Shown here: piece after piece, positions 4,919 through 32,442 of the stretch
Numbering within the stretch: the first letter of the stretch is position 1
Layout: every line of letters starts with the position of its first letter
NCBI GenBank assembly: GCA_945869735.1
Contig: CAMBPQ010000005.1
Span: 6,733-70,732 of the forward strand
Length of the DNA: 64,000 nt
DNA from: Planctomicrobium piriforme
Lineage (GTDB): Bacteria > Planctomycetota > Planctomycetia > Pirellulales > UBA1268
Direction of reading: 5' to 3'
The notes under the pieces: model-generated
Seen by the model: only the letters and a program-made list of their open reading frames with translations
Told to the model about the DNA's origin: nothing
The model's database searches: none
Position numbers and translations under genes: made by a program

Positions 4919-7459
4919 TTGGAAATCGTCCGACAGAACGCCCCGGAAGGCATGATGTCTCACCAGCGGTCAAACTTCTACCAGCGGCACAGCATCGGGA
5001 TCATGGCCGTTCTGGTCTTCCTGATGCCCTTGGTGGTGATCGGGGCCATCAAGGCCAAGAGCAACAACCGCAACGACGTCAAAGGCTGGCTGCCGGCGGA
5101 ATACCCGGAAACCCAGACGTACCGTTTTTTCCGCCAAAACTTCCAGGGCGAGGAGTTCATCCTCGTCAGTTGGGAAGGCTGCACGATGGCCGACCCCCGG
5201 CTGGAGATGCTGGCCAAAAAACTGCTCCCGCCCCCGGAGGAAGCCTCGCGGATCGATCGGCCGCTCTACTACAAAACCGCCCAGACCGGCCCCAGGGCCG
5301 TCGAGCGGATGGGCCAGGATCCCCTCAATCTGGGTCGCGAGGAGGCGATCGCCCGCCTGACCGGGGCCCTGATCGGTCCGCCGCCGCCGGGGGTGGAGGC
5401 TGGAGCGGACGGGGACGACCTCGACCAGCGGAAGACCTGCCTCGTGCTCACCCTGGCCGATGCCGCCCGGGCGAATCTCCACGGCGCAATCGACGAGATC
5501 CGGAAGGTCGCCGTCACCGAATGCGGGATCCCGGACGCGGGCCTGCACATGGGCGGCCCGCCGGTCGACAACGTCTCGATCGACAAGGCCGGACAGACGA
5601 GCGTCACGATCCTCTTCGGCCTGTCGCTCGTCGTCGGCGGTATCGTCAGTTGGTGGAGCCTCAAGAGCAAGACACTCGTGGCAATGGTGATTGCCTCAGG
5701 CGTCTACAGCATGTTCGCGAGCCTGGCCGTCGTCTGGTATTCGGGCTTTCCAGTTGACGCCATCCTGCTCACGATGCCGTCGCTGGTCTACGTCGCGACC
5801 ACTTCGGGCGCGATCCATCTGGCCAACTACTACCGCGACCAGCTTGCGGAGACGGGTGTGCAGGAAGGCGCCGCCGGCCGTGCCGTGCACCACGCGCTCT
5901 TGCCGCTCTCCCTCGCGACGGGCACGACCGCCATCGGCCTCGCCACGCTCGCGGTCAGCGAACTGGTGCCGATTCGCATGTTCGGTATCTTCTCGGCCAT
6001 AGGCGTCGTGGTGAGCTTCCTGATCCTCGTCACGTTCATGCCGGCGGCGCTCGAACTCTTCCCACCGAAACTCAAGGTAGGGATGCTCGCCGGCGACGAA
6101 AACTCGGTCGGTTGGAAGCCGGTCGAGTCGAGCCGGTGGTGGGCGGCGGGCCAATGGATCACCCAGCATCATGCCCTCGCGACTGCCGTCTGCCTCATCG
6201 TGATGGCGGTCGTGGGCTACGGCATGACGCAGGTCGAGAGTAGCGTGCAGTTGATGCGGCTCTTCTCGCGGAAGGCCCAGATCCGTACCGACTATGCCTG
6301 GCTCGAGAGCCATCTGGGCCCCTTGGTGCCCATGGAAATCCTCGTGCGCATCGACGAGAAATGTCCGCTCAACTTTCTTGAACGGATGGAACTGGTCGAC
6401 GAGATTCAGCGGGAGATCGGCAGCCTCGACGCGGTGGGCAGCTCGTTGTCGACCGTCACGTTCGGCCGTAACCTCGAGGGCGGCAGTGCGGGCGAGGGAC
6501 TGCGGGCCAAGCTCGCCCGCAGCACGCTCAACAAAGCTCTGGTGCGGCACCGCGACGATTTCCTGGCCGGCGACTACCTGCGTGAGGCGAAGGTCGCCGA
6601 CTCCGCAGGATTCCCCCGGCAGCAGGAACTCTGGCGGATCAGCGCTCGCGTGAGCGCGATCCAGGAGGTCGACTACGCCCTCTTCAAGGCCGACCTCCAG
6701 AAGAAGATCGATCCAGTGCTCACCCGGCTCGATGGCGATGGCGTTAGCGGCATCGCGGTCGACTACACAGGGCTCGTGCCGCTGGTCTACAAGGCCCAGC
6801 ATTCCCTCCTCGAAAACCTCAAGATCGGGTTCATCTTCGACTTCGCGATCATCGTCGTGGTCATGATCCTCCTCTGCCGGGCCACATCGGCCGGGCTGGT
6901 GCTCCTGCTACCGGCGGCTTTTCCTGCGGTGGTGGTGTTTGGCTTCATGGGCTGGGGCAACGCCCTGTTGAAATCGATGCATGCGGGCAACCTGTTCATC
7001 GACATCGGCAGCGTGATGGCGCCGAGCGTGGCTCTCGGCGTGACCGTCGACGACGTCGTTCACTTCATGCTCTGGTTTCGCCGCGGCATCGCCGACGGCC
7101 TCGACCGCAAGCAGGCCACGATGCTCGCCTACAAGGGCTGCGCCCGGGCGATGTACCAGAGCTGGGGCGTGATCGGCATCGGGCTGTCGGTCTTCTCGCT
7201 GTCGCCGTTTGGTCCGACACAGCGGTTTGGACACATGATGCTCGCGATGCTCACGGTCGCTCTGGTGGGCAACCTCGTGCTCATGCCTGCCATGCTCTCG
7301 GGACCTCTCGGCGGCTTGTTCGCCTGGAGCGTGCACCGCATCGAGCGGAAGAAGGCCGCCCAAGCCGGCCGCCGCTACGTGATCCCCAATTCCGGTAGCG
7401 ACGCCCTCCCTGCTCCCCATGTCGCGCCCGGGCCGGCGAAGCAGGTCGTGCACGCCTGA
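4919..7459 (+). CDS. MMPL/RND-superfamily membrane transporter (HpnN-like architecture)
   Basis: 846 aa with two blocks of about 5-6 TM helices separated by large soluble loops and an N-terminal single TM. This is the typical MMPL layout. The likely start is MMSHQRS near 4949. Confidence 0.7.
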   Translation: MEIVRQNAPEGMMSHQRSNFYQRHSIGIMAVLVFLMPLVVIGAIKAKSNNRNDVKGWLPAEYPETQTYRFFRQNFQGEEFILVSWEGCTMADPRLEMLAKKLLPPPEEASRIDRPLYYKTAQTGPRAVERMGQDPLNLGREEAIARLTGALIGPPPPGVEAGADGDDLDQRKTCLVLTLADAARANLHGAIDEIRKVAVTECGIPDAGLHMGGPPVDNVSIDKAGQTSVTILFGLSLVVGGIVSWWSLKSKTLVAMVIASGVYSMFASLAVVWYSGFPVDAILLTMPSLVYVATTSGAIHLANYYRDQLAETGVQEGAAGRAVHHALLPLSLATGTTAIGLATLAVSELVPIRMFGIFSAIGVVVSFLILVTFMPAALELFPPKLKVGMLAGDENSVGWKPVESSRWWAAGQWITQHHALATAVCLIVMAVVGYGMTQVESSVQLMRLFSRKAQIRTDYAWLESHLGPLVPMEILVRIDEKCPLNFLERMELVDEIQREIGSLDAVGSSLSTVTFGRNLEGGSAGEGLRAKLARSTLNKALVRHRDDFLAGDYLREAKVADSAGFPRQQELWRISARVSAIQEVDYALFKADLQKKIDPVLTRLDGDGVSGIAVDYTGLVPLVYKAQHSLLENLKIGFIFDFAIIVVVMILLCRATSAGLVLLLPAAFPAVVVFGFMGWGNALLKSMHAGNLFIDIGSVMAPSVALGVTVDDVVHFMLWFRRGIADGLDRKQATMLAYKGCARAMYQSWGVIGIGLSVFSLSPFGPTQRFGHMMLAMLTVALVGNLVLMPAMLSGPLGGLFAWSVHRIERKKAAQAGRRYVIPNSGSDALPAPHVAPGPAKQVVHA

Positions 7460-14095: not shown

Positions 14096-14662
14096 ATGCC
14101 GATGCCCCTCGACGACATTCTGCTCAACGCCGAAGAACGGATGGAGAAGGCGGTGGACGTCTTTCGCCACGCGCTTACCGGTATCCGCACGGGCCGAGCC
14201 AATCCTGGCCTGGTCGACACCCTGCGGGTCGAGGTCTACGGCTCGCCCACGCCCATCAAGGCGCTCGCGAGCGTCGGCGCACCCGAATCCAATCAGATCG
14301 TCGTTCGTCCATTCGATCCCGGAACGCTCAAGGACATCGAGAAGGCGATCCAGGCCAGCGACCTGGGCCTCAACCCACAGAGCGACGGCCGGCTGATCCG
14401 GATCGTGATCCCGCCGCTCTCCGCCGACGTCCGCAAGAAGATGTCGGCCCGCATTCGCGATCTTGCCGAGGAGGCCAAGGTTGCGATCCGCAACGTCCGC
14501 CGCGACGCCAACAAGGCAGCCGACACCGAGAAGTCGGATGGCGACCTCACGGAAGACGACTGCGAGCGGTGCAAGGAGGACGTTCAGGAGCTCACCAAGA
14601 AGTATGAGGGGAGTGTCGGCGACCTCGCGAGAACGAAGGAATCCGAGGTCATGGAGCAATGA
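14096..14662 (+). CDS. frr: ribosome recycling factor
   Basis: RTGRANPGLVDTLRVEVYG, IPPLSADVRKKM and IRNVRRDANK. Confidence 0.95.
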   Translation: MPMPLDDILLNAEERMEKAVDVFRHALTGIRTGRANPGLVDTLRVEVYGSPTPIKALASVGAPESNQIVVRPFDPGTLKDIEKAIQASDLGLNPQSDGRLIRIVIPPLSADVRKKMSARIRDLAEEAKVAIRNVRRDANKAADTEKSDGDLTEDDCERCKEDVQELTKKYEGSVGDLARTKESEVMEQ

Positions 14663-14690
14663 CACGCCCCGCGCCTGCGCACCACCGGCC

Positions 14691-15431
14691 ATGATCGAGG
14701 TTTTTGATCTCGTCAAGGAATATCGCTCCGGCGACGGTGCGACCGTGCGGGCCGTCGACGGCGTCTCGTTTGTCGTCCATCCGGGGGAGATGGTGGGCCT
14801 GCTCGGCGGTAATGGCGCCGGCAAGACCACCACCATGCGGATCCTGGCAACGCTGCTGAAGCCCACCGCAGGCACGGCCTCGATCGCCGGACACGACGTA
14901 CGCACCGAACCGCTCGCCGTTCGCGGCCGGCTCGGCTACGTCTCGGCGACGACTGGCGTGCCCGACCGGCTCACGCCCCGAGAGGTTCTCGCGTCGTTTG
15001 GCAGGCTCTACGGGCTGCGCCGCGGCCACCTTGCGGACCGGATCGATTCGCTTTCCGCCACACTCGACCTCGGCGGCTTTATCGACCGGCCGTGTGGCCG
15101 CCTCTCGTCGGGGCAGCGTCAGCGCGTGTCGCTGGGGCGGGCGCTGGTCCACGATCCGCCGGTACTCGTGCTCGATGAACCGACCAGTGCGCTCGACGTG
15201 CTCGGCTCCCGGGACCTGCTCGCGTTACTCGACCGCCTCCGGGACGACGGCCGCACGATCCTGCTCTCCACCCATCGACTGCACGAGATCGAGCGTCGCT
15301 GCGACCGCTTTCTGGTTATCAGCGGCGGCCGCATCCTCGCGGACGGAACCCGCGAGGCGCTCGTCGCCGGCCACGAGGGTGGCCTCGAGGCGGCATTCTT
15401 CGCAGCCGTTGCACCGGAGGCGCGGCTGTGA
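14691..15431 (+). CDS. ABC transporter ATP-binding protein
   Basis: Walker A GGNGAGKTT, signature LSSGQRQRV, Walker B VLVLDEP and H-loop STHRL. ATG 14691 is in frame in track ORF 14463..15431. Confidence 0.9.
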   Translation: MIEVFDLVKEYRSGDGATVRAVDGVSFVVHPGEMVGLLGGNGAGKTTTMRILATLLKPTAGTASIAGHDVRTEPLAVRGRLGYVSATTGVPDRLTPREVLASFGRLYGLRRGHLADRIDSLSATLDLGGFIDRPCGRLSSGQRQRVSLGRALVHDPPVLVLDEPTSALDVLGSRDLLALLDRLRDDGRTILLSTHRLHEIERRCDRFLVISGGRILADGTREALVAGHEGGLEAAFFAAVAPEARL

Positions 15432-17608
15432 ATGCACGTGAACCGGAGGCCGCGGGTGGCTGGCCGGCACGGCTGGCGATCGCCCGCCGCGATCTCTTGG
15501 AGTTTGTCAGGGACCGGCGCGCGCTCTTCATCACGCTGGTGATGCCGATGGCGATGTATCCGTTGCTCGCCCTGTCGAGCACGCTGGGCATCCGCACCGC
15601 GATCACCGAACTCGACAGGCGGGAGGCTACGTCGCAGCTGTCCTTGGCACTCTCCGGCCCCGATGCCGGAGCGTTCGCAACACACATCGACGCCGTCGCA
15701 CGTCGGGCCGACGGACAACCCGACGGCTGGCCCGGCAACCTGTCTGTGCGCGTCGTCGACGCCGACGCGGCACGCCGACTGATCGATGAGGGGGCGGCGA
15801 ACGCCTGGATCGACGTCACGGACGGCACCGTCGCGGGGCTTACTGGCGAGGGCACCATGCCACTCGACGTGAGGCTCTCGACTGTCCACGCGGCCGACCA
15901 CCGGACCAAAGATCATGTCATGGCGGTGATGCGTGGAGTGGCCGACACCGCGCGGCTTGCCCGACTCGGCCGGGCCGGTCTGCCAGAGAGCCTGCTCAAG
16001 CCGCTCCGCATTGATTTCAGTGGCGGCCTGCCGGCGTCGGCCCCTGCCTTCCACGACGTTTTGCCGATGACGGTCGCGGCGGTCCTCGTGCTCCTGGCGC
16101 TGCTGACGGCGACCGGCGCGTTCTATCCCGCCATCGATGCGATCGCGGGGGAGAAGGAACGGGGCACGATCGAGACCCTGCTGCTCGCGCCCTGCACGGC
16201 GCTCGACGTTGTCGCTGGCAAGTTCCTCGCCGTATTCGCCGTCACACTCGCGACGCTCGTGGCCAACGCCCTGTCGATCGCACTGACTGCGACGGTGCTT
16301 GTGCGGGTGCTCCCGGCCGGCTCCTTCGATGGGCTGCGGTCGGCCGGCGTGACTGGCTGTGTGATCGTCACCATCGCGGCCTACGTCGGCGTTGCGGCCA
16401 TCGCGGCGGCACTGTGCCTCGCGGTGACCGCGGCCTCCCGCAGCGCGAAGGAGGCACAAAACACGCTCACGCCGGTCGTGATGCTGATCGCGGCGCTTGC
16501 CGGGTCGGCACTGCTGCCGGGCACGGCGTCGAGCCGCTGGCTCCCCGCGGTACCGTTCGCAGGACAGGTCGCCGTAGCGCGATCGGCACTCGTCGTCGCA
16601 GACCGAGGCACGTCTGACGCCGACCGGAATGCCGCAGAGGGCGCGCCGCAGTTGGGGACCGTCGGCATCGGCCTCGCCACCTCGCTCCTCTCCTCCGCCG
16701 CGCTCGCCTGGCTGCTCCTGCACATCACCGCGGCGCTCGTGTCGAATGAGGAGCTCCTGTTTCGCGGACCCGACGCGGCAACGAGCGGGTTGCGCCGGCC
16801 CGCTCCGCGGAGGTCACCCACTGCCTGGCAGGGCTTCGCCGCGGCGCTCGCGGGCTTCACGGCGCTATGGTACGCCCAGGGGCTCGCACCGGTCGATTTC
16901 GTGCCGGCACTCCTGACCCAGCAGGCCATCGCTGTGCTCCTGCCGCTCGCGGGAATCGCGTGGTGGCAGCGGGTCGATGCCCGAGCGACCTATGCGCTCC
17001 GCTGGCCGGGAACGGCGGCCGTGGCCGGGGCCGCTCTGATCGGCAGCGGGCTGTTTGTCGTGGGAGCTGCGGTGGCCCTCGCCGCCTGGGGCACCGATGT
17101 GTCGCCCGAGGCGCGAAGCCTCGCGGAGCGGCTGATCAACCTCATCCGCGACAACCCTTCGTGGCTGGCGGTGCTCGTTCTCGCAGCGATGCCCGCGGTC
17201 TGTGAGGAACTCCTTTTCCGGGGGTGGGTGCTTTCCGCCCTGGCCGGCGACCGCCCGACGCCGCGCCGCGCCATCGCCGCCGTCGCGGCGCAGGCCGCGG
17301 TCTTCGCCGCGTTTCATCTCTTGCCCGAGCGGATGCCGCAGACCTTCGCGCTGGGGATCGCACTGGGCTGGATGACACTCGCCACGCGGAGCATCCTGCC
17401 GGCGATGATCGCCCATGCCGCACACAACGCCACACCCGTGGTGCTCGTGGCAATCGCATCGCCAGACGACCTCTCCGCCATCGAGCTGGGTACGGCATCC
17501 GGACTTCCACCCTGGGCGACGGCGGTGGCGATAGGATGTCTCGTTGGCGGCGGCCTGCTGCTGGCCGTCGCGCGGCACGGACGCACTTCAAGGGACTCAC
17601 GGACATGA
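15428..17608 (+). CDS. ABC-2-type permease fused to a C-terminal CPBP (CAAX/Abi) intramembrane metalloprotease domain
   Basis: The N-terminal half is an ABC-2/NatB-like polytopic permease. The C-terminal third carries the three CPBP motifs EELLFRG, FHL(x)PE and HAAHN. The GTG start overlaps the ATPase stop (GTGA at 15428-15431). Confidence 0.7.
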   Translation: MNAREPEAAGGWPARLAIARRDLLEFVRDRRALFITLVMPMAMYPLLALSSTLGIRTAITELDRREATSQLSLALSGPDAGAFATHIDAVARRADGQPDGWPGNLSVRVVDADAARRLIDEGAANAWIDVTDGTVAGLTGEGTMPLDVRLSTVHAADHRTKDHVMAVMRGVADTARLARLGRAGLPESLLKPLRIDFSGGLPASAPAFHDVLPMTVAAVLVLLALLTATGAFYPAIDAIAGEKERGTIETLLLAPCTALDVVAGKFLAVFAVTLATLVANALSIALTATVLVRVLPAGSFDGLRSAGVTGCVIVTIAAYVGVAAIAAALCLAVTAASRSAKEAQNTLTPVVMLIAALAGSALLPGTASSRWLPAVPFAGQVAVARSALVVADRGTSDADRNAAEGAPQLGTVGIGLATSLLSSAALAWLLLHITAALVSNEELLFRGPDAATSGLRRPAPRRSPTAWQGFAAALAGFTALWYAQGLAPVDFVPALLTQQAIAVLLPLAGIAWWQRVDARATYALRWPGTAAVAGAALIGSGLFVVGAAVALAAWGTDVSPEARSLAERLINLIRDNPSWLAVLVLAAMPAVCEELLFRGWVLSALAGDRPTPRRAIAAVAAQAAVFAAFHLLPERMPQTFALGIALGWMTLATRSILPAMIAHAAHNATPVVLVAIASPDDLSAIELGTASGLPPWATAVAIGCLVGGGLLLAVARHGRTSRDSRT

Positions 17609-18732
17609 GCGGCGAACCGTGGATGGTGGGATTCCGGCGGGCCGCGGTGGCGAGCGGCATCGTGGTGGTGACATGCCTGATGGTGGCGATCTTCGAGGGC
17701 AGCCTGCGAGGCGAGCCCGCGGCGACGACACCGCGGGTCTTAAAGGTCGCGATCGCACCGATTGCCTCGGCGGTCGAGTGGCAGAACGATCAGCCGACGG
17801 GTGCCATGATCGACATCTGGAAGGAAGTTTCCCGACGGCTGGGCATCTCCTCGGAGTTCATCCGCGTCAAGACATTCGTCGAACTCATGGACCTGGTCCG
17901 GGAGGGGAAGGCCGACGTCTCGCTCGGGCCGCTGGCCATCACCGAAGAACGCGAAAAAATGTTCGATCTGACGCATCCCGTCTTCCACTCCGGCATGCGG
18001 ATCGCCGTGCGGCAGCGGAATGAAAGCGGGTTGGTGTCCGCTGTGCGGTCGATGCTGTCGTGGAAGCTCCTACAACTCATCGGGCTGGCCGTGGCCCTGG
18101 GTGTCGTCTCCGGCCACCTGCTCTGGTGGTGTGAACGAGGCCGCAATCCCCGCTCGTTTCCCCCGGACTATCCCCGCGGCGTCGGCGAGGCGATCTGGTG
18201 GATCATCTCGACGATCGTCACGGGCGGCTGCGACGACAAACACGTCGATGGCCCCCTCGGCCGAATCCTCGCCTTGTTGTGGATGATCGGCGGCATCGGC
18301 CTGATCGCCACCTTCACCAGTGTGCTCACGGCGACGATGACGGCCGAGCGTGTCACGGGCATGATTCAAGGCCCTCGCGACCTCGCGGGCCGGTCGATTG
18401 GCTGCCAGGAGGGCTCGGTGACCGTGTAGACGATCCGCCAACGTGGGGGTTTCCCGCAGGAGTATGCGACCATCCTCGATGCGATCGATGCGCTCGAACT
18501 TGGCATGGTAGACGCGGTGGTCGGCGAGGCTCAGACGCTGATGTACGTCATCAACGAGTCGGGAAGGAACGAGGTGAAGCTCGTCGGCCCGATCTTTGAC
18601 TCCTTCGACTACGGCCTGGCGCTGCCGACGAGCAGCCCGCTCCGCGAGGAACTCAATGCGGTGATCCTGCAACTGCGGGAGGACGGCACACTCACCCGCA
18701 TTCAGGAAACCTGGCTGGGCGTTCACGACTAG
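17605..18732 (+). pseudogene. GluR0-type ligand-gated ion channel (SBP lobe 1, M1, P-loop, M2, SBP lobe 2) interrupted by an in-frame TAG at 18427-18429
   Basis: Track ORFs 17224..18429 and 18505..18732 are in the same frame and are separated only by one TAG. Family-3 solute-binding lobes (ADVSLGPLAITEEREKMFDLTHPVF ... VDAVVGEAQTLMYVI ... YGLALPTSSPLREELN) flank a two-TM pore module (GEAIWWIISTIVTGGCDD). The ATG overlaps the upstream stop (ATGA at 17605-17608). Confidence 0.7.
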
Positions 18733-18840
18733 AGCGCATTCGAGTTACGTGGAACGCCGGCTCGGGGGCGGCAAAAGTCTCGTCGCTCTCTCGCCGCGGC
18801 GGCTCAGGCGCTCCTCGAGCGTTTGCCGACCCCCTTGCCT
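18730..18840 (-). repeat. family-A dispersed repeat, copy 1
   Basis: TAGAGCGCATTCGAGTTACGTGGAACGCCGGCTCGGGGGCGGCAAAAGTCTCGTCGC...GCTCCTCGAGCGTTTGCCGACCCCC. It starts on the TAG stop of the channel gene and abuts family B. Confidence 0.85.
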
Positions 18841-19160
18841 CCCGTCAGGAAGCCCCAAGCGCGAGCGCGGGGTATCCGGGCTGCATCGATGCGGTGCCGG
18901 ATTGGTTCACCGGCGGTGACATGCTCGCCGCCGGGGGATTTTGCTCCAGGATGCTCGGGTGGCCGACTGGGGAATTGCTTGAGAGTCGCAAAGATTCCCC
19001 GGCGTCTGCGCGTGCCACGCCCGGCTCCTCACGATCGGGAATCGGGTGGGTCACCGTGGGTGTTGCTTCCCGTCAGGAAGCCCCAAGCGCGAGCGCGGGG
19101 TATCCGGGTCGCATCGAGACGGTGCAGGATTGGTTCGCCCGCGGACGCTCAAAGGCCTGG
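18841..19160 (+). repeat. family-B repeat locus (about 1.3 tandem units of ~228 bp)
   Basis: The 40-nt motif cccgtcaggaagccccaagcgcgagcgcggggtatccggg occurs at 18841 and again at 19069. The intervening core is homologous to 8929-9093. Confidence 0.8.
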
Positions 19161-19449
19161 TGGCTCCCGCTCCACAAAACCCGTCCAGACCACAGATGTG
19201 ATCGCCCTGCGCGGCGGCCGTTTACCGCTCTGCCCATGAAAAACCCGGATGGACCGAGAAACTTTCTGGAAGTAGGTTTCGAGGATCGCGTTGGGGGTGA
19301 GGCCGGGAGCATGCCACTGTCGCCGATCGGCCTAGGAACGGGCAACATCGGCTGCGGTCGCCTGCGGCAGCCGCCAGCCGTTGTGGATTCCAGCAGCGCG
19401 GCGACATACTGACGCCCCCTTATTCCATCCTATTTCGGAGTCACGGTTC

Positions 19450-19914
19450 ATGGGCCTCATCAAGGAATTTCGCGACTTCGCCATGCGCGGCAACGTCATC
19501 GACCTCGCCGTCGGCGTCGTGATCGGCAGCGCCTTCGGCAAGATCATCAGTTCGCTCGTCGCCAACATCGTCATGCCGCCACTGAACCTGCTGACGAGCA
19601 AGTTTGGCGTGAACTTCAACGATCTGGCCTGGCGGGTGCGGATGGAGTCGCCAAAACTCCTTGCCGACGGCACGGCCGAGATGAAGGACGGCAAGCCCGT
19701 GATGCTGCTGCAGGACTACCCGATCCTGAACTACGGGCCGTTCATCCAAGCGGTCGTCGATTTCCTGCTCGTCGCCGCGGCCATCTTCCTGGTCGTGAAA
19801 CTCATCAACACGGCCAAGGCCCGGTTCGACGAGAAAAAGGACGAGGCTCCGGCCGCCCCGCCGGAGGATGTCATGCTCCTGCGCGAAATCCGCGACGTCC
19901 TCGTGAAACGGTAG
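19450..19914 (+). CDS. mscL: large-conductance mechanosensitive channel
   Basis: [37 protein letters not shown] is the canonical MscL N-terminus. ATG 19450 is in frame in track ORF 19381..19914. Confidence 0.9.
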
Positions 19915-19915
19915 C

Positions 19916-21370
19916 GTGCCGATGGGCTTCTGCGACGACTCCTTCCTGCTGTCGAACGACGTCGCAGCGGACCTCTTCCACCGGGTAGCCGACCGGCGTC
20001 CGATCGTCGACTACCACTGCCACCTCAGCCCCCAGGACATCGCCGCCGACCGGCGGTTCGAAAACCTGCATGCCGCGTGGCTGGAGGGCGACCACTACAA
20101 GTGGCGGGCAATGCGGGCCGACGGCGTGCACGAGGATCGGATCACGGGCTCCGCCTCGCCCCGCGAGAAGTTTCAGGCGTGGGCGGAAACGGTGCCCCAC
20201 ACGCTGCGGAATCCGCTCTTCCACTGGACTCATCTTGAGCTCCGGCGGCATTTTGGCATCGCTGATCTTCTCGAAGGCCCGTCGGCCGAGGCGATGTGGA
20301 CTGAGGCCAACCGCCAGCTCACCACCGGGCCACTGACAGCGCGGGGCATCCTCGACGCGATGCATGTCGAGTTCGTCGGTACCACCGACGATCCGGCCGA
20401 TAGCCTCGACGCCCATCATCAGATCGCCCGCTCGGGATTGAGGGTGCGCGTGGTGCCCACCTTCCGCCCAGATGCGGCGGGCAAGGTGCGGCAGCCCGAG
20501 CGGCTCAAAGCCTGGGCGAAGCGGCTCTCCGACGCCGCGGGCATCGCGGCCGACACGTATGCCGGCCTGCTCGCCGCGCTGGCGACACGTCATGACGACT
20601 TCGCCGCCGCCGGCTGCCACGCGACCGACCACGGGCTCGAATCACTTGCCGCAGCCGACTGCACCGACACCGAGGCCGCGTCGATCTGGCGCCGCGCCCT
20701 GGCTGGCACGCCCGCCACCGCGGACGAGGCCGACCGTTTTGCGACTTCGATCGTGCTCCATGTCGCCCGGCTCAACCACCAGAAGGGCTGGGTGACGCAG
20801 TTGCACCTCGGCCCCTTTCGTGACCCGAATCCATCGCTCGCCAAGCGGCTCGGCGCCGACGCCGGCTGCGACACGATCGGCGACGCCCGTCAGGGCCCGG
20901 GCCTCGTCCGCTTCCTCGGCACACTTGCCGCCGAAAACAGTCTCGGTCGCACGATCCTCTACAACATCAACCCCGCCGACAACGCCCTCTTCGCCGCCCT
21001 GCCAGGCTCGTTTCAGGACGGCATCCTGCCCGGCAAGATCCAGTGGGGCAGCGGCTGGTGGTTCATGGATCAGGAGCGGGGCATGCGGGACCAGCTGAAC
21101 ATGCTCTCCGACCTGGGACTGCTCTCCCGGTTCGTGGGCATGGTGACCGACTCGCGGTCGTTCCTCTCCTATCCCCGGCACGAATACTTCCGGCGGATCC
21201 TCTGTGATCTCCTCGGCACGGACGTTGCCACCGGCCGACTGCCAGACCGCCGCGACTGGCTCGACGCCCTCGTCGCTGCCGTGTGCGATGACAACGCCCG
21301 CGGCATGTTCGCGGCCGAACGGAGCGAAATGCTGCCGTGCCCCCGTCCGACACTCGAGACTCGCTCGTGA
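19916..21370 (+). CDS. uxaC: glucuronate (uronate) isomerase
   Basis: PIVDYHCHLSPQDIA, HYKWRAMRA, NPLFHWTHLEL and WWF..Q are UxaC hallmarks. Length is about 480 aa. Confidence 0.9.
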   Translation: MPMGFCDDSFLLSNDVAADLFHRVADRRPIVDYHCHLSPQDIAADRRFENLHAAWLEGDHYKWRAMRADGVHEDRITGSASPREKFQAWAETVPHTLRNPLFHWTHLELRRHFGIADLLEGPSAEAMWTEANRQLTTGPLTARGILDAMHVEFVGTTDDPADSLDAHHQIARSGLRVRVVPTFRPDAAGKVRQPERLKAWAKRLSDAAGIAADTYAGLLAALATRHDDFAAAGCHATDHGLESLAAADCTDTEAASIWRRALAGTPATADEADRFATSIVLHVARLNHQKGWVTQLHLGPFRDPNPSLAKRLGADAGCDTIGDARQGPGLVRFLGTLAAENSLGRTILYNINPADNALFAALPGSFQDGILPGKIQWGSGWWFMDQERGMRDQLNMLSDLGLLSRFVGMVTDSRSFLSYPRHEYFRRILCDLLGTDVATGRLPDRRDWLDALVAAVCDDNARGMFAAERSEMLPCPRPTLETRS

Positions 21371-31327: not shown

Positions 31328-32442
31328 TGCCGCCGCTCTCGCGCGTCGTCGTGGCCATGTCAGGGGGCGTCGATTCGAGCGTTGCAGCCGCGCTGTTGGT
31401 GGAGGCTGGCCACGACTGCGTCGGCGTCTTCATGCGGCATGCATCTCCCGCTCTGCCCGTCGGTGATCCAGCAAATCCGCTCGCGCTTTTACCTGCACGG
31501 CCGGGGCACCAGGGATGTTGCAGCCCGACAGACGCCCTCGACGCACGCCGGGTGGCCGACCGCCTCGGCATTCCGCTCTATGCCCTCGACCTCACGCCCG
31601 ACTTCGAGCGGATCATCGACGACTTTACAGCCGAGTATGGCCGCGGACGCACGCCGAATCCCTGCGTGCGGTGCAACTCCTGGGTGAAGTTTGGCCGGCT
31701 CTTCGAGCACGCCCACGCGATCGGCGCCTCGCACGTGGCCACCGGCCACTACGCCCGGGTCATGCAGGGGCCGAATGGTCCGCAGCTGAGCCGCGGCCGC
31801 GATCCCGCCCGCGACCAGTCGTACGTGCTCTTTGACATCCGACCCGACCGCCTGCGACGGATGCTCCTCCCCGTCGGCGACCTGCCCAAAACGGAGGTGC
31901 GGGAACGGGCGACGGCGCTGGGACTCGTCACGGCCGACAAGCCCGACAGCCAGGAAATCTGCTTCGTCGCTCCGGGGGAGCACGCCCGTCTTGTGGCCCA
32001 CCGCCTCGGAGGGTCGCGAGCTGGCGAGATCGTCGACATCTCTGGCTGCGTGCTGGGGCGCCATGCCGGCATCGAGCACTTTACCGTCGGCCAGCGGCAG
32101 GGGCTCGGCATTGCAGTGGGCGTGCCGCTGCATGTGGTCCGGATCGAAGCCGACACCTGCCGGATCGTCGTCGGCCAGCGGACGGACGTGCCCGAGCACG
32201 AGCTCACGGCAGCGGCGGCGTCCTGGCTCTCCGAACCGCCCACGGAGCCTTTCGAGTGCCTGGTGCAGTGCCGCGCACAGCGGGCGGCGTCTGAGGCCGT
32301 GGTCACGCCGCTCGCAGGCAACCGATTCACCGCCCGGTTCACAGGCGGCGCAGACCGCTCGCCGGGGCCCATCTCCCCGGGCCAGCCGGCGGTCTGCTAC
32401 GCCGGCGACCGACTCCTCGGAGGCGGCTGGATCGTGGAGTAG
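31327..32442 (+). CDS. mnmA: tRNA 2-thiouridine(34) synthase
   Basis: PP-loop VAMSGGVDSSVAA, PNPCVRCN, ATGHYAR and DQSYVL. Confidence 0.9.
   Translation: MPPLSRVVVAMSGGVDSSVAAALLVEAGHDCVGVFMRHASPALPVGDPANPLALLPARPGHQGCCSPTDALDARRVADRLGIPLYALDLTPDFERIIDDFTAEYGRGRTPNPCVRCNSWVKFGRLFEHAHAIGASHVATGHYARVMQGPNGPQLSRGRDPARDQSYVLFDIRPDRLRRMLLPVGDLPKTEVRERATALGLVTADKPDSQEICFVAPGEHARLVAHRLGGSRAGEIVDISGCVLGRHAGIEHFTVGQRQGLGIAVGVPLHVVRIEADTCRIVVGQRTDVPEHELTAAAASWLSEPPTEPFECLVQCRAQRAASEAVVTPLAGNRFTARFTGGADRSPGPISPGQPAVCYAGDRLLGGGWIVE

Follow-up and report, generated by a model that had tools for sequence, protein, structure and literature searches.

A probable young, segregating amber allele in a channel gene from a lake-planctomycete clade of ionotropic glutamate receptor homologues

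We analysed a stretch of 64,000 nt of Planctomicrobium piriforme DNA (positions 6,733 to 70,732 of contig CAMBPQ010000005.1, assembly GCA_945869735.1; hereafter, the window) and, within it, a gene at 17605–18732 (+). Its reading frame of 375 codons contains a lone internal stop, the TAG at 18427–18429 (codon 275), and is closed by a TAG of its own at 18730–18732. With a probability of roughly 0.82, we read this gene as encoding an amino-acid-gated channel from a clade of ionotropic glutamate receptor (iGluR) homologues of lake Planctomycetota, present in the window as a real, young and segregating null or near-null TAG allele. The frame is interrupted in the window copy and intact in its sister alleles. 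The original prediction, made from the letters of the window, had described a GluR0-type ligand-gated channel gene with a single amber codon inside the second binding lobe and an unusual pore motif; our translation around the TAG is identical to the string it gave.

The family assignment and layout held up in profile searches. With an X put at the stop, Pfam matched SBP_bac_3 over residues 56–372 (E = 1.6e-23), and this match was split by Lig_chan (167–271, 1.6e-11) and Ion_trans_2 (193–246, 1.1e-6). This is the arrangement of a prokaryotic iGluR, a family-3 solute-binding domain divided into two segments (S1 and S2) by a module of one transmembrane helix (M1), a pore (P) loop and a second transmembrane helix (M2); both SBP_bac_3 parts and the pore, which the GluR0-type call had named as its test, were detected. 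Homology also continues behind the TAG for about 100 codons, as had been claimed: these 100 residues alone match SBP_bac_3 (9e-5). NCBIfam gave sub-threshold matches only, to periplasmic amino-acid-binding proteins (GlnH, Lys/Arg/Orn binding protein). An amino-terminal domain (ATD) and a fourth membrane segment (M4) are absent, with a single N-terminal hydrophobic helix before S1 and the frame stopping 3 residues past SBP_bac_3. An AlphaFold2 (AF2) model built from a 20-sequence alignment, which we used for helix order and topology only (pLDDT 67.5, pTM 0.47), placed helices at residues 153–177 (M1), 191–206 (pore helix) and 217–251 (M2), with a loop at 207–216 and no helix past S2. The parts of the gene are as follows.

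17605–18429, +: 5′ part of the iGluR-like gene, codons 1–274 and the premature TAG (translation, Pfam)
17620–17703, +: N-terminal hydrophobic helix, residues 6–33, a signal anchor or signal peptide (AF2 helix 6–33 and sequence)
17734–18030, +: S1 segment, residues ∼44–142, with the motif GPLAITEEREK (Pfam)
17950–17952, +: R116, aligned with the alpha-carboxylate-binding Arg (HMMER against 2pyy and GluA1–4)
18061–18135, +: M1 transmembrane helix, residues 153–177 (AF2 helix 153–177, block pLDDT 75–87; Lig_chan match)
18175–18252, +: re-entrant pore helix (residues 191–206) and filter loop (AF2 helix 191–206, then loop; Ion_trans_2 193–246; GluA4 alignment)
18211–18237, +: pore sequence STIVTGGCDD (translation)
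18220–18237, +: TGGCDD (T206 G207 G208 C209 D210 D211), with KHVDG next (translation)
18253–18357, +: M2 helix, residues 217–251, equivalent to eukaryotic M3 (AF2 helix 217–251; HMMER against GluA4)
18427–18429, +: premature amber codon 275 (alignment and nucleotide table)
18430–18732, +: 3′ remnant, predicted to be untranslated, codons 276–375 (most of S2/lobe 2 and the return to lobe 1) and the normal TAG
18526–18528, +: E308, aligned with the alpha-amino-binding Asp/Glu of iGluRs, within the 3′ remnant

A search over 5.8 billion proteins, after which the DNA of 25 near-identical loci was retrieved, recovered both forms of the gene and placed the similarity past the stop well above the level of chance. 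Intact 375-aa proteins fell into 26 clusters that are 97–99% identical across 100% of the length, and 274-aa proteins ending exactly at the window's stop formed two more (P0031 and P0032, 100% identical, from 13 contigs of up to 202 kb). Position 275 is Gln (CAG) in every intact near-identical sequence and Q, P, G or A in farther orthologues. The lesion is a C-to-T transition at 18427 that turns CAG (Gln275) into TAG, one nucleotide from a sense codon as originally proposed; in the nucleotide table, this base is T in the window and in loci L001–L008 and C in 17 intact loci. The intact alleles closest to the TAG alleles are distinguished from them by 18427 alone, or by one or two sites more. 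TAG is present in at least eight other assemblies from three accession series, including the ENA assemblies ERZ27265264, ERZ27265265, ERZ27280192, ERZ27280257 and ERZ27280287 and the Logan assemblies SRR13558452, SRR13558453 and ERR3719150, and CAG in many 'GROS21' ENA assemblies as well as in ERR114..., ERR3719149 and SRR19430202. Counted by contigs, TAG is the minority allele of one species-level population, with ∼15 contigs (about one fifth) against ∼66 that carry CAG (clusters P0001–P0026).

The DNA surrounding the lesion places it on several backgrounds. Among 32 variable sites in 4.2 kb (14605–18832), 7–8 of which lie within the 1128-nt gene, all TAG sequences have A14900, C15856 and C16527, and they vary at 15787, 15829, 16045, 17018, 17200, 17719 and 17742, so that at least four haplotypes can be told apart. 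Among the intact haplotypes, L012 is the closest; it comes from ERR3719149, whose run number adjoins that of the TAG-carrying ERR3719150. No site 3′ of the TAG varies among TAG alleles, and the 3′ remnant equals that of the intact alleles except at 18521, where the window and 24 loci have T and only the intact L087 has C. The TAG is a real allele of single origin that later spread or recombined. It would be an error of sequencing or assembly, with CAG in the organism, only if the same mistake had been made many times over: a single-base difference from the majority allele is what a consensus error in a metagenome-assembled sequence can look like, but the same base stands in at least eight assemblies that came out of different pipelines (MEGAHIT-style k141 contigs from ENA, and Logan) and on at least four linked haplotypes. 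Because the same site recurs in independent assemblies on different linked backgrounds, a base-call error, which the original prediction had left open, has a negligible probability. As a separate observation, all four combinations of 17719 and 18427 were seen (G–T in the window and L008, A–T in L001–L007, A–C in most intact loci, G–C in L087), a sign that, within 708 bp, this population has undergone recombination or recurrent mutation.

In this genome, TAG is an ordinary stop, and the evidence speaks against its being decoded. It ends complete genes for MnmA, DJ-1/PfpI and MscL in the same window as well as the gene studied here, and the TAG-terminated MnmA matched all three of its domains, up to residue 375 of 377. 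A six-frame scan for long open reading frames (ORFs) separated by a stop was too noisy at 66% GC, and a codon-position GC filter was used instead; it gave a rough stop usage of 32 TGA, 11 TAG and 2 TAA in the window. Two other same-frame pairs separated by TAG, at 32440 and 46784, were rejected as candidates. Both are complete unrelated genes (MnmA/FloA and DJ-1/Fur), so the window holds no further in-frame ambers.

If the TAG were nevertheless decoded, by a suppressor tRNA, as pyrrolysine or through near-cognate read-through, a full-length functional channel could be made. The allele does persist on several haplotypes without further decay, and low-level misreading of UAG by tRNA-Gln, which occurs in bacteria, would restore the wild-type Gln. 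The missing decay is uninformative here, because, with the diversity observed here, 303 nt should contain fewer than one additional change. Against decoding stand the complete genes that end in TAG, the sequence context of the stop (the following base is A at both 18427 and 18730), the lack of any tRNA gene found in the 64-kb window, and the residue of the orthologues at this position, which is ordinary and variable (Q/P/G/A). We give decoding a slim chance.

With TAG acting as a stop, the C-to-T change at 18427 would end translation after 274 residues. The predicted product runs from the hydrophobic helix through S1, M1, the pore loop and M2 to ∼25 residues past M2, and E308 would stay untranslated since it lies 3′ of the TAG. 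Lacking almost all of S2, such a product could form no ligand-binding clamshell, hence our expectation of a null or near-null allele. The first in-frame start past the TAG, the ATG at 18505, would give a 75-aa fragment. We considered and rejected complementation of the truncated protein by this S2 fragment: with no export signal and without residues 276–300, it could not be expected to rebuild an extracytoplasmic S1S2 domain. Gene callers in public assemblies split the nonsense allele into a 274-aa protein and a 75-aa ORF (18505–18732, +, no Pfam match); these separate calls are annotation artefacts of the allele.

The gene itself has been under constraint on both sides of the stop. Compared with orthologues from related metagenome-assembled genomes (MAGs; L025, L026 and L028, with 92%, 74% and 72% identity), the ratio of nonsynonymous to synonymous substitution rates (dN/dS) was 0.24–0.39 for codons 1–274 and 0.11–0.28 for codons 276–375, which indicates that the part behind the TAG was under purifying selection until very recently. 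No decay was seen 3′ of the TAG. About 110 columns are invariant in the clade alignment, including R116, E308 and T206–D215. In a scan of GTDB representative genomes of species other than the window's own, the best match was 92% identical (the Pirellulales MAG LejiaB_66_22), and all 61 loci of the family matched the protein continuously unless a contig end cut them.

These data also bear on a third possibility, namely that the 274-aa product is functional (as a ligand-independent pore, a dominant-negative subunit, or a regulatory subunit of the ABC-2/CPBP protein encoded upstream) and that the allele is maintained for this reason. In its favour, the truncated product retains all of S1, M1, P and M2, the allele is no rarity (∼15 of ∼80 contigs), and the upstream partner genes are intact. 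Yet none of the 61 related genomic loci naturally lacks S2, contig ends aside, S2 is strongly conserved, and from established iGluR structure S1 alone cannot form the bilobed gating domain; we regard a functional truncation as very unlikely. We read the TAG as a young, segregating loss-of-function allele, which cells would tolerate well enough for it to reach its share of the assembled contigs.

Several points weigh against this reading. The AF2 model is of moderate quality, and its Foldseek TM-scores are 0.31–0.42. The 64 kb analysed are only a part of the genome, and a suppressor tRNA or pyl genes could lie elsewhere. The allele is known from assembled sequences, termination at the TAG is a prediction, and its persistence on several haplotypes and in several projects would also be expected of a mildly deleterious allele or one partly rescued by read-through. 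The proposed ligand, tetramer formation and ion selectivity are drawn from homology.

The pore motif had been called odd, and this claim stood in part. The K+ signature T-x-V-G-Y-G-D that marks GluR0 in the strict sense is indeed missing, the P loop reading TIVTGGCDDK instead. The motif is not peculiar to this gene: T206–D215 (TGGCDDKHVD) is invariant in every aligned member of the clade, down to 56% identity, and the pattern [VI]TGGCDDK occurred at 61 loci among 185,579 species genomes, almost all of them labelled Planctomycetota/Pirellulales and, judged by record names, mostly from lake MAG sets. TGGCDD is the normal motif of its clade, odd only relative to GluR0. An exhaustive HMMER search returned 672 clusters (at 50% identity) with E ≤ 1e-30 and 2728 with E ≤ 1e-10. 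We scored pore types on its best 150 representatives: 81 have the K+-type GYG, 21 GGC[DE], 12 TQAEEMP, six TGE[YH]GD, four GGDAEK and three VGG[AT]DNK, and ∼20 fall into other types. Across the same 150, the position of R116 is R in 145 and the acidic S2 position is D or E in 138; both are invariant in the clade. Among these prokaryotic iGluR homologues, at least six pore-loop types recur (GYGD, GGC[DE]NK, TQAEEMP, TGE[YH]GD, GGDAEK and VGG[AT]DNK; P0121–P0269). Several K+-type members of 600–730 aa have extra N-terminal regions, and one protein of 2362 aa (P0236) has five matched stretches.

Comparison with characterised receptors helps to place the clade. GluR0 of Synechocystis PCC 6803 (slr1257), a glutamate-gated K+ channel, has the same order of signal/anchor, S1, M1, P, M2 and S2 in ∼370–400 aa and likewise no ATD and no M4; the Arg in S1 and the acidic residue in S2 that bind the alpha-amino acid are common to both. 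Its TVGYGD pore makes it K+-selective, whereas the window protein has TGGCDD instead and the window copy is broken by the TAG. We know of no member of the GGC[DE] class that has been characterised electrophysiologically, and our literature search found no such characterisation, nor a paper combining Planctomycetes and iGluRs. Prokaryotic iGluRs with a K+ filter, such as GluR0, form Group 1 of Ger et al. 2010 (PMC2950845), and those without a recognisable K+ filter, cyanobacterial and proteobacterial proteins closer to eukaryotic receptors, form Group 2. Members of Group 2 likewise have S1 and S2 around two transmembrane helices and a P loop without the K+ signature, and the predicted window protein fits the group by this definition, as distinct from identity to its published members. 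It differs from the published group in coming from another phylum, Planctomycetota, which has no occurrence in that paper, and in an operon or fusion with an ABC-2/CPBP protein, which is not reported there. Representatives with GGC[DE] from outside the planctomycetes are only ∼30–38% identical to the window protein, and TGGCDDKHVDG is specific to, and invariant in, the clade.

Among solved structures, the best relative of the ligand-binding lobes is the ligand-binding domain (LBD) of the bacterial iGluR homologue from Nostoc punctiforme (2pyy, 5.8e-29), and about 50 of the 60 best PDB matches were eukaryotic iGluR chains. Foldseek, queried with the AF2 model, ranked LBD–transmembrane domain chains of AMPA, kainate and delta receptors first (probability 1.0), with low TM-scores because the domain arrangement is poorly modelled. 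HMMER aligned S1-M1-P-M2 with GluA1–4 at ∼1e-18, with 18–22% identity to AMPA and kainate receptors (GluA1–4, GluK2). In these alignments, 'plaiteERE' stands opposite 'pltitlvRE' (the R116 column) and, for GluA4, 'IVTGGCDD' opposite 'FMQQGCDI', and the end of M2, FTSVLTATMTAE, opposite the gate motif SYTANLAAFLTVE; over the longer gate stretch, FTSVLTATMTAER is aligned with SYTANLAAFLTVER. The GCD and T..L.A..T.E(R) positions align, and the gate motif is only partly identical. G207 occupies the Q/R position, where the window protein has Gly and not Gln or Arg, and counted from it D210 is at +3 and D211 at +4. The +4 site of AMPA receptors, which we take to be the Asp of QQGCD, is aligned with D210; either way, an Asp is found there. 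An acidic +4 residue is widely conserved among iGluRs (PMC12226733). The eukaryotic architecture of ATD, S1, M1-M2(P)-M3, S2, M4 and carboxy-terminal domain (CTD) is not that of the window protein, which has no ATD, M4 or CTD. As far as its sequence tells, it is a minimal receptor of GluR0 architecture with a pore that would be eukaryote-like rather than K+-channel-like.

By homology to iGluRs, the intact form, one of the minimal prokaryotic homologues found in lake Planctomycetota and mostly in Pirellulales, would be a cation channel that is gated by amino acids and assembled as a tetramer. S1 and S2 would clamp an alpha-amino acid between them, its carboxylate held by R116 and its amino group by E308, and closure of the clamshell would pull on M2, whose end (LTATMTAE) is the putative counterpart of the SYTANLAAF gate. 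The TGGCDD loop, predicted to lack the carbonyl ladder of TVGYG, resembles the QQGCD of AMPA and kainate receptors, its Q/R position being taken by Gly and both +3 and +4 by Asp, so the channel would probably be cation-selective but not K+-selective. The original expectation that an intact channel is unlikely to be K+-selective is a reasonable one on the same grounds.

The gene is the third and last cistron of three overlapping genes, a context that the original prediction had not raised. The two upstream genes are as follows.

14691–15431, +: ABC transporter ATPase, 246 aa, first gene of the module, called with the same length elsewhere (Pfam ABC_tran, 2.7e-31; synteny)
15428–17608, +: ABC-2 permease::CPBP (Rce1-like) intramembrane protease, 726 aa (Pfam; NF041647-like; synteny)

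The stop of the ATPase gene overlaps the GTG start of the permease::CPBP gene by 4 nt (GTGA, 15428–15431), whose TGA in turn overlaps the ATG of the iGluR-like gene by 4 nt (ATGA, 17605–17608). In sister contigs, frr (ribosome-recycling factor) lies directly upstream. The order of ATPase, permease::CPBP and iGluR is kept in 45 of the 55 Planctomycetota loci among L025–L085 that have enough upstream sequence, and the ten loci without these neighbours are probably paralogues. In distant relatives, permease, protease and channel are joined in one polypeptide: P0122 (1113 aa), identical on four independent contigs, two from JGI and one each from ENA and Logan, and P0124 (1101 aa) both retain the GGC[DE]NK pore loop. 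The fusion loci are at these positions.

L088, 3001–6306
L089, 3001–6342

The conserved order and the fusion argue for functional, and probably physical, coupling. It is possible, at a little under even odds, that the iGluR-like channel is a physical component of an ABC-2 transporter/CPBP protease machine rather than a stand-alone chemoreceptor. In that case, amino acids outside the cell would act as a signal that gates or regulates the transporter or protease, or ATP-driven export would be coupled to an ion flux, and the TAG allele would be a natural knock-out of the machine's sensor arm. To our knowledge, such a transporter/protease/channel architecture has not been described for any iGluR, and no paper joining CPBP or ABC-2 proteins with iGluRs was found in our literature search. 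The upstream 726-aa protein matches nearly the whole of the NCBIfam model NF041647 (E = 4e-118), but its 395.9 bits fall short of the curated threshold of 435. The description of this family does not include linkage or fusion to an iGluR-like channel.

Just 3′ of the gene, an 82-nt direct repeat (18835–18916 and 19063–19144) has two copies that are 90% identical and 228 nt apart. Rfam gave no match for it, and it folds no more stably than shuffled sequences do (z −0.2 to −0.9). Other samples yield contigs that agree with the window as far as ∼19030–19060 and diverge beyond, and many assemblies end there. Past the divergence, the neighbourhoods are DUF58/MoxR in L001, FKBP/peptidase M50 in L002 and MscL/UxaC in the window. 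Probably the repeat is a dispersed one at which assemblies break off or are wrongly joined, or else it marks a real rearrangement point. The window's own genes beyond it are the following.

19381–19914, +: MscL mechanosensitive channel gene, ends in TAG
19916–21370, +: glucuronate isomerase UxaC, starts 2 nt after MscL

What is new here is the planctomycete clade; a non-K+ class of prokaryotic iGluR pores was already known, and the amber is a genuine, ordinary nonsense polymorphism. As first stated, the finding changes little, amounting to a probable natural loss-of-function allele and a pore type already catalogued. It has value as an annotation warning, since public assemblies list a 274-aa and a 75-aa ORF in place of one interrupted gene, and the TAG allele gives population studies a probable knock-out that already exists in nature. 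The clade may be relevant to iGluR evolution: it is linked to an ABC-2/CPBP protein at the gene level, and in some lineages by fusion, and it combines an invariant AMPA/kainate-like GGCDD loop and a SYTANLAAF-like gate in what would be a minimal bacterial receptor with two transmembrane helices.

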